From Escherichia phage vB_EcoM-CHD94UKE2, in the sequence record MZ234031.1: DNA of 64,000 nucleotides; one strand, given 5' to 3'. Positions 1,766 through 63,456 of this stretch are shown piece after piece. The notes under the pieces were generated by a model. The model saw only the letters and a program-made list of their open reading frames with translations, was not told the origin of the DNA and did not search any database. Position numbers and translations under genes: made by a program. Each line of letters begins with the position of its first letter. Position 1 is the first letter of the stretch.

Positions 1766-2059
1766 ATGAAAAAATTTATCTTTGCTACAATTTTTGCTTT
1801 AGCTTCTTGTGCTGCTCAGCCTGCTATGGCAGGTTATGATAAAGATTTGTGCGAATGGTCTATGACTGCGGATCAGACTGAGGTTGAAACTCAAATTGAA
1901 GCAGATATTATGAATATCGTTGAGCGTGATCGTCCTGAAATGAAAGCTGAAGTGCAAAAACAGCTTAAGTCTGGTGGTGTAATGCAGTATAATTACGTTC
2001 TGTATTGTGATAAAAACTTTAATAATAAAAATATCATCGCTGAAGTGGTAGGTGAATAA
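1766..2059 (+). CDS. sp: Spackle-like periplasmic protein (superinfection exclusion / lysozyme inhibitor), 97 aa with signal peptide
   Basis: N-terminal signal/lipobox-like MKKFIFATIFALASCAAQPAMA; size 97 aa and location between 41 and 61 as for T4 sp (61.3). Confidence 0.5.
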   Translation: MKKFIFATIFALASCAAQPAMAGYDKDLCEWSMTADQTEVETQIEADIMNIVERDRPEMKAEVQKQLKSGGVMQYNYVLYCDKNFNNKNIIAEVVGE

Positions 2060-2071
2060 TTAGAGGCTAAT

Positions 2072-2236
2072 ATGAAAACGTTTAAAGAATTTATCAAAGA
2101 AGATATGGTCGCTGGAGATTCAGGTGGTAGTCCTGAAAATATCTCTACTGGAACAACGTCAGGCGCTGTAGTAAATAAAGGTCCTGAACAGATTCCTAAA
2201 AAGAAAAAAGAGGAATCTAAAGAAAAAGAAGAGTAA
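2072..2236 (+). CDS. Hypothetical small acidic/lysine-rich protein, 54 aa (below ORF-track threshold)
   Basis: ATG 2072 to TAA 2234-2236, read by hand; stop lies just upstream of gene 61 start. Confidence 0.35.
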   Translation: MKTFKEFIKEDMVAGDSGGSPENISTGTTSGAVVNKGPEQIPKKKKEESKEKEE

Positions 2237-7196: not shown

Positions 7197-7820
7197 ATGA
7201 TTATTAATCTTGCAGATGTTGAACAGTTATCTATAAAAGCTGAAAGCGTTGATTTTCAATATGATATGTATAAAAAGGTCTGTGAAAAATTTACTGACTT
7301 TGAGCAGTCTGTTCTTTGGCAATGTATGGAAGCTAAAAAGAATGAAGAGCTTCATCGGCAATTGAATAAAATCATTAAAAAGCATTTAACTAAATCGCCT
7401 TATCAGTTATATCGTGGTATATCAAAATCGACAAAAGAACTTATTAAAGATTTACAAGTTGGAGAAGTGTTTTCAACGAACAGGGTAGATTCATTTACTA
7501 CTAGTTTGCATACAGCGTGTTCTTTTTCTTATGCTGAATATTTTACTAAAATAATACTTCGTTTAAAAACTAATAAAGCTTTTAATTATTCTGACCATAT
7601 CAGCGATATTATACTTTCTTCTCCTAATACTGAGTTTAAGTACACGTATGAAGATACTGATGGGCTAGATTCAGAGCGTACTGATAACTTAATGATGATT
7701 GTGCGTGAACAAGAATGGATGATTCCAATTGGAAAGTATAGAATAACTTCTATTTCAAAAGAAAAATTACACGATTCATTTGGAACATTTAAAGTTTATG
7801 ATATTGAGGTAGTTGAATGA
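7197..7820 (+). CDS. modB: ADP-ribosyltransferase ModB
   Basis: 207 aa; R-S-E motif series (LYRG ... FTTSL ... EQEWM); tandem with paralog; order as in T4. Confidence 0.6.
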   Translation: MIINLADVEQLSIKAESVDFQYDMYKKVCEKFTDFEQSVLWQCMEAKKNEELHRQLNKIIKKHLTKSPYQLYRGISKSTKELIKDLQVGEVFSTNRVDSFTTSLHTACSFSYAEYFTKIILRLKTNKAFNYSDHISDIILSSPNTEFKYTYEDTDGLDSERTDNLMMIVREQEWMIPIGKYRITSISKEKLHDSFGTFKVYDIEVVE

Positions 7821-8419
7821 AATACTCAGTAATGCAACTAAAAGATTTTAAAATAAAATCAATGGATGCATCGGTGCGTGCTTCTATTCGTGAAGAATTA
7901 CTTTCTGAAGGGTTTAATTTATCTGAAATTGAACTTTTAATTCATTGTATTACTAATAAGCCAGATGACCATACTTGGTTAAATGAAATAATCAAATCTC
8001 GTTTGGTTCCAAACGATAAACCTCTTTGGAGAGGTGTTCCAGCTGAGACTAAACAAGTATTAAATCAAGGAATTGATATTATTACATTTGATAAAGTCGT
8101 ATCAGCTTCATATGATAAAAATATAGCTCTACATTTTGCTTCCGGTTTAGAGTATAACACACAAGTTATTTTTGAATTCAAAGCTCCTATGGTATTCAAT
8201 TTCCAGGAGTATGCTATAAAAGCTCTGCGCTGTAAAGAATACAATCCAAACTTTAAGTTTCCGGATAGCCATCGTTATCGTAATATGGAATTAGTTTCAG
8301 ATGAACAAGAAGTAATGATACCAGCTGGAAGTGTATTTAGAATTGCAGATAGATATGAGTATAAAAAGTATTCAACATACACTATCTATACTCTTGATTT
8401 TGAAGGATTTAATCTATAA
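7817..8419 (+). CDS. modA: ADP-ribosyltransferase ModA
   Basis: 200 aa; LWRG ... SAS ... EQEVM; paralog of the upstream ORF. Confidence 0.6.
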   Translation: MKYSVMQLKDFKIKSMDASVRASIREELLSEGFNLSEIELLIHCITNKPDDHTWLNEIIKSRLVPNDKPLWRGVPAETKQVLNQGIDIITFDKVVSASYDKNIALHFASGLEYNTQVIFEFKAPMVFNFQEYAIKALRCKEYNPNFKFPDSHRYRNMELVSDEQEVMIPAGSVFRIADRYEYKKYSTYTIYTLDFEGFNL

Positions 8420-21201: not shown

Positions 21202-21759
21202 ATGCAGAAAACGAATCCGGGTTTGCAGAGACTATTTCAGATTCCGTCATTTACCCTATCGAACAGTGACTTGACTAGTGAAATGAAGGTCAAAATTGCT
21301 GATACTGCAAGATACTCTTTAAAACAAAACCCGAACCAGGATAAAGCAGAAGTTATCGAAAGATGTCGTATCGCTGTGTACGCAGAGTTTTTTGTGGCAG
21401 ATTGGCTAAGAGGGTATGTTAACAAAGGCCAAGAGGATGTTAATGACCCGTATACATACGCATGGGATGTACTGGCGCATCCAAAATACTGCGGGCTTCG
21501 TGTAGAAGTTAAGACACATCAAACTGACTCACGTTGGATTTCGGTAACAACAGGATGCAGCGGAGAGTATCCATATGGTTCTGGAATAAATCTAGGGCCC
21601 ATTCTAAATCATCAAGTCGCTGACTGTATAATTATATTCAACACTAAAGAAATTCATCCAGGTGTCATCCAGTACACTCCGAAGTTCATCGGTGACAGAG
21701 AAGACCTTCGTAAGGTTGTAAGAAAAAGCAACTACAATGGATGGTATCTTTCCATTTAA
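21202..21759 (+). CDS. denB: Endonuclease IV DenB-like
   Basis: 185 aa, same length as T4 DenB; position next to rIIB; assignment from synteny and size. Confidence 0.5.
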   Translation: MQKTNPGLQRLFQIPSFTLSNSDLTSEMKVKIADTARYSLKQNPNQDKAEVIERCRIAVYAEFFVADWLRGYVNKGQEDVNDPYTYAWDVLAHPKYCGLRVEVKTHQTDSRWISVTTGCSGEYPYGSGINLGPILNHQVADCIIIFNTKEIHPGVIQYTPKFIGDREDLRKVVRKSNYNGWYLSI

Positions 21760-25451: not shown

Positions 25452-25500
25452 ACAACTATCAAATAAATGAACTGAAACAAACAACCCGGAGATACAAAAA

Positions 25501-25728
25501 ATGAAATTTAAAATCGAAAACGAAATCGTTAAAGCTAAAAATGCTCTGACTGCTAACAAACTGGTTGTAGATGGTATTGAATATGATATCTGTGGAGTTC
25601 GTGAAGAAAAACCTGGTGTTCTGACTTTCTTCACAATGATTTTTAAATTTAAAGGTGACACAGAATTCAAACAGTTTGATTTTGCCCATGAAGACGAAAT
25701 CGAAGTTCGTAATCTGAACATTAAGTAA
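25501..25728 (+). CDS. Hypothetical protein, 75 aa
   Basis: ORF; 5' UTR shares TATCAAATAAATGAACTGAAAC with the motA leader. Confidence 0.45.
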   Translation: MKFKIENEIVKAKNALTANKLVVDGIEYDICGVREEKPGVLTFFTMIFKFKGDTEFKQFDFAHEDEIEVRNLNIK

Positions 25729-25767
25729 GTACTTTATTAGAGCTCTTGAAAAAGAGTGCAAAAAAGT

Positions 25768-25796
25768 GTTTACTTCTGCTTTAAACATGATACTAT
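25768..25796 (+). promoter_or_regulatory. T4-type early promoter upstream of motA
   Basis: GTTTACTTCTGCTTTAAACATGATACTAT. Confidence 0.5.
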
Positions 25797-58409: not shown

Positions 58410-58451
58410 ATGCCAATAAGTCCTGCATTTTCATTTAAAAGAGAATTTATA

Positions 58452-58628
58452 ATGGCAAAACAAGCTAAAGCAAAGAAAGCAGTTGAAAAGAAAGTTGGTG
58501 ATTCTAAACGCGCTGGCTACAAGCGTGGGTCGAACTCTCGTATCAATCAAACTGTTGAGAAGATCATGCGCCGAGCACGTGCGGTTCTTCGAGATGATGC
58601 TTCTCGTTTTGGTAAGCAGAAAGCATAA
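58452..58628 (+). CDS. Small basic protein, 58 aa
   Basis: ATG 58452 (MAKQAKAKKAVEKKVGDSKRAGYKRGSNSR...); track ORF starts upstream at 58410. Confidence 0.4.
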   Translation: MAKQAKAKKAVEKKVGDSKRAGYKRGSNSRINQTVEKIMRRARAVLRDDASRFGKQKA

Positions 58629-58631
58629 GTT

Positions 58632-58660
58632 GAGGACTCCTTCGGGAGTCCTTTTTTATT
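58632..58660 (+). terminator. Rho-independent terminator (same hairpin as after soc)
   Basis: AGGACTCC-TTCG-GGAGTCCT then TTTTTTATTTT. Confidence 0.75.
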
Positions 58661-58738: not shown

Positions 58739-59071
58739 ATGAAAACGATTAATCTGAACGCTACAGTTAAAACTAAATGCTTCAATGGTAAATATGATGA
58801 AACTATGTGGTTCTTAATGGCAGTTGAAGGTGATATCATTGAAGTAGAAACAACAGAAGGTATGGGAACAGATTTCACCTTTACAATTCAAGTTCATAAT
58901 TTCTTTACTGGTTGGATTTATGAATTGAATACAGTAATCGTTGGAAAAATTGAACAAAATGAATTAGGTGAATGGTATTATGTTACAGCTCGCCAACGTG
59001 CCGAACGCTTAATTGAGAAGATGAAAAAAGTTGGTAAACTTGACATGCAGCATTGGAAAGTAGTAAAATAA
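58739..59071 (+). CDS. Hypothetical protein, 110 aa
   Basis: ORF with SD AAGGAGAAT. Confidence 0.45.
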   Translation: MKTINLNATVKTKCFNGKYDETMWFLMAVEGDIIEVETTEGMGTDFTFTIQVHNFFTGWIYELNTVIVGKIEQNELGEWYYVTARQRAERLIEKMKKVGKLDMQHWKVVK

Positions 59072-59832: not shown

Positions 59833-60029
59833 TGAAATTCTTTTTAGGTCAAACCGTTGAATTAAAGGGAGTTGGTATACCTGGATTAATTTCTAAGGTT
59901 TTACCTCCATTTAAATGGAGTGGTATTCAAATAAAAGAGGCTTATATTGTTTCCTGGGTAGATGGAAATGAAGACCTTCGTATGGGTGATGAATTATCTC
60001 CTATCTACGGATTAAAGGAAATAGTATGA
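59832..60029 (+). CDS. Hypothetical protein, 65 aa
   Basis: ORF. Confidence 0.4.
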   Translation: MKFFLGQTVELKGVGIPGLISKVLPPFKWSGIQIKEAYIVSWVDGNEDLRMGDELSPIYGLKEIV

Positions 60030-60232
60030 ATATAATTAATAAGATTTTTGGAATTCAGTACATTAAGGTCACATATAAAGTAACAGATAAAAATCCGTAT
60101 ACTGATGAACATGAAGAACCGCAAGTTGAGTCTATTATATTAGAAAAGGACCCTAACTGGCCAGTTGAATTTCGTCTTCCTTGCTATGGTCATTGGGCTG
60201 ATGTTGAAATTATAAGCATTGAAAATGTCTGA
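60026..60232 (+). CDS. Hypothetical protein, 68 aa
   Basis: ORF. Confidence 0.4.
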   Translation: MNIINKIFGIQYIKVTYKVTDKNPYTDEHEEPQVESIILEKDPNWPVEFRLPCYGHWADVEIISIENV

Positions 60233-60683
60233 GTTAGAGATTAGAAGCAATTTTAGGTGGCCATCATGTGCATTAAGTAATTTCGCCCATTGGCCTTTCG
60301 TTATGGATGGCATTCAATTTGGAGGTCTTGAAGGATTCCTCCAAGGATGCAAAGTGAAAAATGTTGAACAACAACGTCGTATATTTGGGTTATCCGGGCT
60401 TGCCGCCCAACAAGCTGGAAGGTCTTATGCAAGAGCTCAGGACCGTGGGACCCTCTTCTGGCTTGGAGTTCCATTTTCAAGATACTCCCCGGCGTGGAAA
60501 GAATTATACACAAATGCATATTTTGAAGCAGCGATCCAAAACAAGGGCTTCCGTGATGCATTACAAGCCTCGAAAGGAAAAGTTTTGAAGCACAGCATGG
60601 CTAGTGGTCTAACAAAAGATGATACAATACTAACCGAAGCTGAATTTATTGATGTGTTAAACCTATTAAGAGACTCTCTATGA
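60225..60683 (+). CDS. NADAR-like (YbiA/DUF1768-like) domain protein, about 152 aa
   Basis: Motif LSNFAHWPFVMDGIQFGGLEGFLQGCK resembles NADAR core (SNF..WP...DG..F...E.F.Q..K); visibly higher G+C than flanks. Confidence 0.45.
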   Translation: MSELEIRSNFRWPSCALSNFAHWPFVMDGIQFGGLEGFLQGCKVKNVEQQRRIFGLSGLAAQQAGRSYARAQDRGTLFWLGVPFSRYSPAWKELYTNAYFEAAIQNKGFRDALQASKGKVLKHSMASGLTKDDTILTEAEFIDVLNLLRDSL

Positions 60684-61519
60684 AGCCTACTATTTTAACT
60701 GATATTGATGGAGTGTGTTTAAGCTGGCAATCAGGCCTTCCTTATTTTGCTCAGAAATATAATCTTCCGTTGGAACATATTTTAAAAATGATCCAAGATG
60801 AAAAATTTATTTCTCCTGGTAAACTTTTTAATTGTGATGAAGAACTTGGTGTCAAGTTAATTGAAAAATACAATCGTTCAGATTTTATTCGTTACTTGTC
60901 TCCATATAAAGATGCTCTGTGTGTAATTAACAAATTAAAAGAAGATTATAATTTTGTAGCTGTTACAGCGCTGGGTGATTCTATTGACGCTCTGCTGAAT
61001 CGTCAATTTAATTTGAATGCTCTTTTTCCTGGTGCCTTCTCAGAAGTACTGATGTGTGGTCATGATTCTTCAAAAGAAGAGTTGTTCAAAAAGGCAAAAG
61101 AGAAATATAACGTAATTTGTTATATTGACGATCTCGCTCACCACTGCGATCACGCGAGTGAAATATTAAGTGTTCCTGTTTATTGGATGGCTCGAGGGGA
61201 ACGTGACAGTATTCCAAAAACTGCTCAGCGAGTTTATACATGGAACGATGTAGAGAATAAGCTTTTTTCACCAAAGGAAAATAAAGAAAGTTTTGATAGT
61301 GAAAAAACTATAAAAGATGTAATTGAAAAGATGATTAAAAACGATTCTTTTCGTTGGAACACTACCTGGAGAACTCCTGGATTTAATCCTTATAATCATC
61401 TATATCATCCATATCAGACACATCCGTTTCAGACATGGAACTATATTAAACCCGGCGGTATAGAGTATTTGTATAATAGACCTACTTGTGGTGATAATAT
61501 TTTCCAAGGAGCATTCTAA
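60680..61519 (+). CDS. HAD-superfamily hydrolase-like protein, 279 aa
   Basis: N-terminal DxDG motif (LTDIDGVCL) and downstream YIDD acid motif; precedes DNA ligase. Confidence 0.45.
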   Translation: MKPTILTDIDGVCLSWQSGLPYFAQKYNLPLEHILKMIQDEKFISPGKLFNCDEELGVKLIEKYNRSDFIRYLSPYKDALCVINKLKEDYNFVAVTALGDSIDALLNRQFNLNALFPGAFSEVLMCGHDSSKEELFKKAKEKYNVICYIDDLAHHCDHASEILSVPVYWMARGERDSIPKTAQRVYTWNDVENKLFSPKENKESFDSEKTIKDVIEKMIKNDSFRWNTTWRTPGFNPYNHLYHPYQTHPFQTWNYIKPGGIEYLYNRPTCGDNIFQGAF

Positions 61520-63248: not shown

Positions 63249-63433
63249 AAGCTTACTTAGAAACAATTGTCATTGCTCAAAAAGAAGGTGGAGATGTTTC
63301 TACTTCTGTATCACAAGTCATTCTCGAATTTGTAGATGCATACGCTTATAATAAATTTACAGAAACATTTGATGCCTATGAAAAAGGACCAAAGTTTGAA
63401 ATATATCGTACTCTCTTACCACTAGATTACTAA
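63245..63433 (+). CDS. Hypothetical protein, 62 aa
   Basis: ORF. Confidence 0.4.
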   Translation: MKAYLETIVIAQKEGGDVSTSVSQVILEFVDAYAYNKFTETFDAYEKGPKFEIYRTLLPLDY

Positions 63434-63456
63434 AGGCCTTCGGGCCTTTAATTTTA
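63433..63456 (+). terminator. Hairpin terminator (UUCG loop)
   Basis: AAGGCC-TTCG-GGCCTT then TAATTTT. Confidence 0.6.

Follow-up and report, generated by a model that had tools for sequence, protein, structure and literature searches.

The G+C-rich open reading frame between genes 30.4 and 30.2 of Escherichia phage vB_EcoM-CHD94UKE2 is adfN, encoding a predicted stand-alone phage NADAR

What does a short, comparatively G+C-rich open reading frame (ORF) in a T4-like phage genome encode, and is it a newcomer there? The question was raised by a preliminary description of a 64,000-nt stretch of Escherichia phage vB_EcoM-CHD94UKE2 (MZ234031.1; hereafter the window), which proposed that the ORF specifies a NADAR-like protein linked to the reversal of ADP-ribosylation, that it may counter DarT-type defence, and that its base composition reflects horizontal acquisition.

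The ORF, initiated by ATG and 152 codons long, is a real gene (Table 1). An in-frame TTG lies upstream at position 60219, where the ORF listing starts; the T4 annotation of gene 30.3 uses the ATG. The window protein is equal in length to T4 gp30.3 and identical to it at 150 of 152 positions (99%), differing only by Q22H and I125M, and the alignment with the T4 gene contains no frameshift. As judged from this alignment, the ORF is T4 gene 30.3, that is, adfN. The gene is not new, having already been characterised and published as AdfN. Escherichia phage vB_EcoM-G3F7 carries the 2-kb stretch around it at 100% identity, and DNA-level matches to this stretch occur in 652 phage records. Gene 30.3 itself is present in 1,510 records of T4-like phages across the Straboviridae, whose hosts include Escherichia, Klebsiella, Aeromonas, Acinetobacter, Vibrio, and others. 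Among the matches listed, nearly all of the approximately 65 records bear the name "hypothetical protein"; a 100%-identical protein in phage Shinka is annotated as "NADAR domain containing protein". The gene can now be labelled adfN (phage NADAR, anti-DarTG1 DNA ADP-ribosylglycohydrolase) in place of "hypothetical protein", a change that matters little beyond annotation.

Table 1. Coordinates of adfN, its landmarks, and other features of the window
Feature	Position	Strand	Description
adfN (T4 gene 30.3)	60225..60683	+	152-aa stand-alone phage NADAR; putative guanine-ADP-ribose DNA glycohydrolase (activity from T4 protein)
ATGTCTGA overlap	60225..60232	+	adfN start inside the end of gene 30.4 (60026..60232)
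E36 codon GAA	60330..60332	+	predicted catalytic glutamate; invariant in the 67-sequence alignment
K43 codon AAA	60351..60353	+	predicted ADP-ribose-contacting lysine; column at least 90% conserved
ORF 30.3'	60361..60588	+	+1 frame inside adfN, 75 aa; T4 annotation "internal translation in a different reading frame"
H123 codon CAC	60591..60593	+	last beta-strand; marks the phage NADAR subfamily; invariant in 67 sequences
C-terminal alpha-helix, residues 138-152	60636..60680	+	intact; helix predicted at residues 138-151 in the AlphaFold2 model
ATGA overlap	60680..60683	+	between the adfN stop and the gene 30.2 start
Gene 30.2	60680..61519	+	279 aa; starts MKPTILTDIDGV, HAD-type DxDGV phosphatase-like motif
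modB	7197..7820		PHROG match, T4 annotation
modA	7817..8419		PHROG match, T4 annotation
alt, first 171 codons	63486 to window end		PHROG match, T4 annotation
Terminator-like hairpins and sigma-70-like site	58632..58653, 59040..59069, 63431..63450	+	promoter/terminator scan

Reversal of guanine ADP-ribosylation by NADARs was reported by Schuller et al. (2023; PMC11543638), together with the presence in phage NADARs of a His at the position occupied by Glu in YbiA and by Asp in DarG1. The gp30.3 proteins were named phage NADARs in a study in Toxins (2024; PMC11125620), in which the T4 protein hydrolysed guanine-ADP-ribose, not thymidine-ADP-ribose, in vitro; it also acted on guanine-ADP-ribose produced by the transferase ScARP, which is not related to DarT1, and gave uninfected cells no protection from DarT1. 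The methods section of that study lists the T4 NADAR construct as "gp30.3; residues 1-208"; T4 gene 30.3 encodes 152 aa, and T4 gp61.2 (AdfA), at 208 aa, matches the range given, a typographical error or tags being possible.

Johannesman et al. (Nat Commun 2025; PMC11825919) mapped resistance to DarTG1 to gene 30.3, which was renamed adfN. Its deletion made T4 and T2 sensitive to DarTG1, and ectopic adfN expression rescued RB69, a DarTG1-sensitive phage whose own copy is frameshifted with loss of the C-terminal helix; activity was likewise reduced in truncated T4 AdfN (PMC11825919). AdfN is both required and enough for T-even phages to resist DarTG1 (PMC11825919; PMC11125620). The purified T4 protein strips ADP-ribose off DarT1-modified DNA, losing activity with E36A and being impaired by K43A (PMC11825919). 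It does not counter DarTG2, and it is fully effective only in T-even infection, helping non-T-even phages weakly, possibly because AdfN needs another T-even protein (PMC11825919).

Is the window protein itself a NADAR? In an hmmscan search (E ≤ 1), its sole Pfam match was PF08010 (Phage_30_3), at 233.6 bits (cut-off 36; E=7.4e-70) over the full profile (1-138). The Pfam NADAR family, PF08719, to which the preliminary description looked for confirmation, did not match the protein alone, a phmmer search of PDB sequences returned nothing significant (one chance match at E=0.6), and an NCBIfam search with gp30.3 gave no match. Membership is thus carried by the family profile and the fold. A database search yielded 104 homologues, several of which are labelled YbiA/DUF1768 by a source, and a family alignment of 67 sequences was used for column conservation, for a profile, and as input to AlphaFold2. 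The profile matches E. coli YbiA (2b3w; E=0.0048) over SNFA...E..FQ..K, and PF08719 is matched by 24 of the 67 family members (best E=1.5e-7), so that the expected Pfam assignment holds for part of the family and not for the window protein on its own.

The AlphaFold2 model (pLDDT 93.1, pTM 0.88) contains six helices of at least five residues, one shorter helix of four (14-17), and small strands, in the arrangement typical of the YbiA fold, in which small beta-sheets flank an alpha-helical core. The comparison with YbiA that had been suggested was also positive: the top three Foldseek matches in the PDB were YbiA, a Phytophthora nicotianae NADAR with ADP-ribose bound, and a G. lovleyi NADAR, and these three structures were the only significant ones, with noise below. 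The predicted NADAR core begins at about residue 3 of 152, and the protein consists of the core domain only. On profile and predicted structure, then, NADAR membership holds via family profile, fold, and catalytic residues, and not by a direct PF08719 match; both the proposed fold and its association with reversal of ADP-ribosylation agree with the literature on T4 AdfN (PMC11825919; PMC11125620).

The NADAR-like motif from which the proposal had started is indeed present. Residues 17-43 read LSNFAHWPFVMDGIQFGGLEGFLQGCK, comprising that motif and E-x-F-x-Q-x2-K. The catalytic Glu and Lys of the NADAR motif E-x2-[FL]-Q-x2-K both occur in the window protein, as E36 and K43; in the family profile match, the former pairs with the Glu of SEHYFQAQKF in YbiA and the latter with the YbiA Lys. 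Columns invariant across the 67 sequences are S18, N19, F20, E36, G37, F38, Q40, H123, T134, and T137, and H123 falls within a strand (120-123) predicted in the AlphaFold2 model. The columns of Q22H and I125M are both variable in the family alignment, and the two substitutions are expected to leave function unchanged.

The same columns bear on the idea that the protein is a YbiA-type housekeeping N-glycosidase, which would detoxify reactive intermediates of the riboflavin pathway and have no role in defence. The Glu of the last strand that defines the YbiA subfamily is replaced here by an invariant His, and both the genetics and the biochemistry of T4 AdfN indicate DNA de-ADP-ribosylation and an anti-DarTG1 role. 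Such a housekeeping function is therefore scarcely credible.

The reading that we hold to be very probable is that the ORF is adfN and specifies a minimal stand-alone NADAR-fold enzyme that clears DarT1-made guanine-ADP-ribose from phage DNA. According to this model, adfN would be expressed as part of the 30.x block, which lies upstream of the DNA ligase gene. Upon infection of a cell with DarTG1, the DarT1 toxin would put ADP-ribose on phage guanine bases, blocking replication; AdfN would then use E36, K43, and H123, placed around its ADP-ribose pocket, to hydrolyse the guanine-ADP-ribose bond, and the phage DNA, freed of ADP-ribose, would be cleared for replication. AdfN would in this way act like an orphan DarG1 copy, an antitoxin that does not bind the toxin.

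The present analysis contributes to this model the identity with T4 AdfN, the NADAR fold, the conserved catalytic residues, the intact C-terminal helix, and the T4 synteny. For enzymatic activity and the anti-DarTG1 phenotype we rely on publications about the 99%-identical T4 protein; both would extend to the window protein by analogy. By the same analogy, a counter to DarT-type defence is to be expected for DarTG1, where guanine is ADP-ribosylated, and not for DarTG2. A motif-level reading of raw sequence had in this instance recovered a function experimentally established only by 2023-2025.

Might AdfN have a wider job than opposing DarT1? Guanine-ADP-ribose could come from pierisin/ScARP-like or YarT-like toxins or from undiscovered defences, and ADP-ribosylated RNA could be the target, a possibility raised by Johannesman et al. 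themselves (PMC11825919). The activity of the T4 NADAR on the ScARP product is in line with this suggestion, as are family reviews according to which all NADAR classes also remove guanine-ADP-ribose from RNA. So too are the retention of gene 30.3 in so many T4-like phages infecting many genera and its conservation relative to Gaprivervirus RZ, where gp30.3 is 86% identical and most neighbours are less so (43-69% for 30.4, 30.2, 30.1, and ligase). Against it, DarTG1 sensitivity is the only in vivo phenotype reported, and a wider job would extend the main explanation rather than replace it. We regard it as unlikely, if worth keeping in mind.

The surroundings of adfN are those of T4. Genes follow the order of the T4 reference (30.8, 30.7, 30.6, 30.5, 30.4, 30.3, 30.2, 30.1, 30, alt.1, alt), and all proteins of this block are 97-99% identical to their T4 counterparts; the surrounding ORFs match the Pfam families of T4 gp30.8, gp30.7, and gp30.1, after which comes a 487-aa DNA ligase. 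The overlap at its 5' end suggests that adfN may be translationally coupled to gene 30.4. A promoter and terminator scan, in which site counts were no higher than in shuffled sequence, placed strong terminator-like hairpins after a 72-aa ORF (58410..58628) and after alt.1, and its best sigma-70-like site (TTGACA-18-TAAAAT, 11/12 matches) just upstream of 30.7. These positions would suggest one unit running from 30.7 via adfN and ligase to alt.1.

As for the downstream neighbour, a polynucleotide-kinase PHROG is the best labelled match of gp30.2, though a weak one (E=0.003), and the protein is named "putative phosphatase" in one public record; searches returned no Pfam match, no PDB sequence match, and a single NCBIfam match at chance level (E=0.092, well short of the cut-off). 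Whether co-location ties 30.3 functionally to 30.2 was considered, and the link was rejected: of 80 related loci, just 20 have the two genes less than 3 kb apart, reflecting lineage synteny.

The preliminary description had counted three ADP-ribosyltransferases in this phage, and modB, modA, and the start of alt are all found in the window, with alt about 2.8 kb downstream of adfN in the same orientation. This setting invites the thought, hinted at in the preliminary description, that Alt, ModA, and ModB of the phage itself make the modifications that AdfN reverses or adjusts. However, the T4 annotation assigns these transferases host protein targets (RNA polymerase alpha, S1, and EF-Tu), whereas the NADARs tested act on guanine-ADP-ribose, not thymidine-ADP-ribose. 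The proximity to alt, moreover, is conserved T4 synteny, and 30.3 of most distant relatives does not lie near ligase or alt. A role in self-modification is hence extremely unlikely.

A second anti-DarT factor of T4, adfA (gene 61.2, 208 aa), was not found in the 64-kb window by tblastn with T4 gp61.2. Its slot is empty, sp (1766..2059) being followed directly by 61.1 (2072..2236). With adfA absent, no anti-DarT factor other than adfN is recognisable in the window, and a phage without adfA would offer a clean background for studying AdfN alone.

Two further ORFs overlap adfN, as had been pointed out: an 86-aa frame on the minus strand (60301..60561) and the plus-strand frame known from T4 as 30.3'. 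Are they genes? Against synonymous-codon shuffles of the same protein, the lengths of the two ORFs are unremarkable (P approximately 0.03-0.28 per frame, without correction for multiple tests). In the same comparison, the stop-free run of the 30.3' frame gave P values of approximately 0.10-0.28 and the longest minus-strand frames approximately 0.02-0.12, both uncorrected. The 30.3' frame is mostly open in 13 distinct close relatives (78-98% nucleotide identity) and closed in distant ones; its ATG is lost in two relatives, and in a third a stop follows after 14 codons. Its translation is 66% identical to that of RZ, compared with 87% for adfN over the same bases. In view of the shuffle-like lengths and of a 30.3' that is broken or startless in some relatives, the overlapping ORFs were rejected as extra genes, with low certainty, and 30.3' is probably a by-product, not a gene. 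The explanation given in the preliminary description, that stops are fewer in G+C-richer sequence, is adequate.

These neighbours and the internal frame are also where the putative T-even helper of AdfN could be sought, the candidates being gp30.2, translationally coupled to adfN, gp30.4, and the 30.3' ORF. The loose association of 30.2 with 30.3 and the disruption of 30.3' in some close relatives both argue against a helper encoded beside or inside adfN, and we consider this very unlikely.

How, then, did the patch come to be G+C-rich? The richness itself, correctly noted at the outset, is clear: adfN has 42.5% G+C, compared with 35.7% for the window, a value within the highest 4% of all 459-nt windows and the second highest among 100 greedily chosen genes of the window (z=2.2). 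Its GC3 is 0.34 (mean 0.25; rank 5 of 100). The preliminary description took this as a sign of horizontal acquisition, in which case the gene would be a recently acquired foreign gene (a moron) rather than an old T-even resident. Codon usage lends this some colour. Relative to expectation from the protein sequence, GC3 is raised (0.342 versus 0.265; z=2.35, rank 7 of 100), and, with composition allowed for, the synonymous codon choice of adfN is the third most atypical of the 100 genes (z=-4.6). The rare G/C-ending codons GGG, AGG, CTC, and CCG cluster at about 60370..60470.

The protein sequence itself nevertheless predicts most of the excess. When the protein was held fixed and its synonymous codons were redrawn according to codon usage in the window, the expected G+C was 41.0 ± 1.2%, compared with the 42.5% observed (P=0.12), and adfN ranks fourth of 100 genes in its fraction of Gly, Ala, Arg, and Pro. 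Most of the excess, approximately three quarters, is therefore due to amino-acid composition. Thus, of the proposed G+C and codon signals, the atypical codon choice stands, and the G+C excess is largely accounted for.

Comparison among phages points the same way. Across 79 IMG/VR loci, the gene rises and falls in G+C with its flanks (r=0.94), exceeding them by only 2 points on average, and a proxy for synonymous differences from RZ puts adfN at 0.37, inside the 0.26-0.52 of its neighbours. Together with the high conservation of the protein, this argues for vertical inheritance within the Tevenvirinae, with strong purifying selection. Given the 1,510 records and the neighbour-like synonymous divergence, any acquisition must be ancient rather than recent. 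Recent horizontal transfer was accordingly rejected on protein-conditioned G+C, the G+C of the 79 loci, and synonymous divergence; a moron is highly improbable, and G+C richness is weak ground for inferring acquisition. The residual codon oddity could be a remnant of foreign origin, a consequence of low expression, or a constraint from the overlapping frame, and it fits an old foreign origin, not a recent one. The published phylogeny, for its part, suggests capture of adfN from a DarG1-like source (PMC11825919).

Elsewhere in the window, the strongest GC3 excess over expectation and the most atypical codon choice belong to 21202..21759 (+) and 25459..25788 (-), with z=4.4 and 4.6, respectively, for GC3. 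The former, to judge from its size and its position after rIIB, is probably denB; the latter may not be a real gene.

Among known systems, the closest is T4 gp30.3/AdfN ("phage NADAR", PF08010), with which the window protein shares genomic position, length, E36, K43, and H123, the intact C-terminal helix, and 150 of 152 residues; the two phages differ in that T4 additionally carries adfA. DarG1, the NADAR antitoxin of DarTG1 systems (for example, the Geobacter/Trichlorobacter lovleyi NADAR, PDB 8bat), is encoded adjacent to darT1. By contrast, adfN in the window is an orphan flanked by T4 genes 30.4 and 30.2 with no adjacent darT1, and its product lacks the N-terminal extension and has His123 where DarG1 has a catalytic Asp. 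According to the literature, AdfN also differs from DarG1 in being unable to neutralise DarT1 in uninfected cells.

Also related are E. coli YbiA (PDB 2b3w) and the P. nicotianae NADAR (PDB 8bau) of Pfam PF08719, at approximately 17-20% identity with AdfN. YbiA and the P. nicotianae NADAR have a Glu in the last strand, where AdfN has His, and the link of YbiA is with riboflavin metabolism rather than with counter-defence in phages. AdfA (T4 gp61.2), finally, counters DarTG1 as AdfN does but is unrelated to it; as reported in the literature, its active allele binds DarT1 without reversing the modification.
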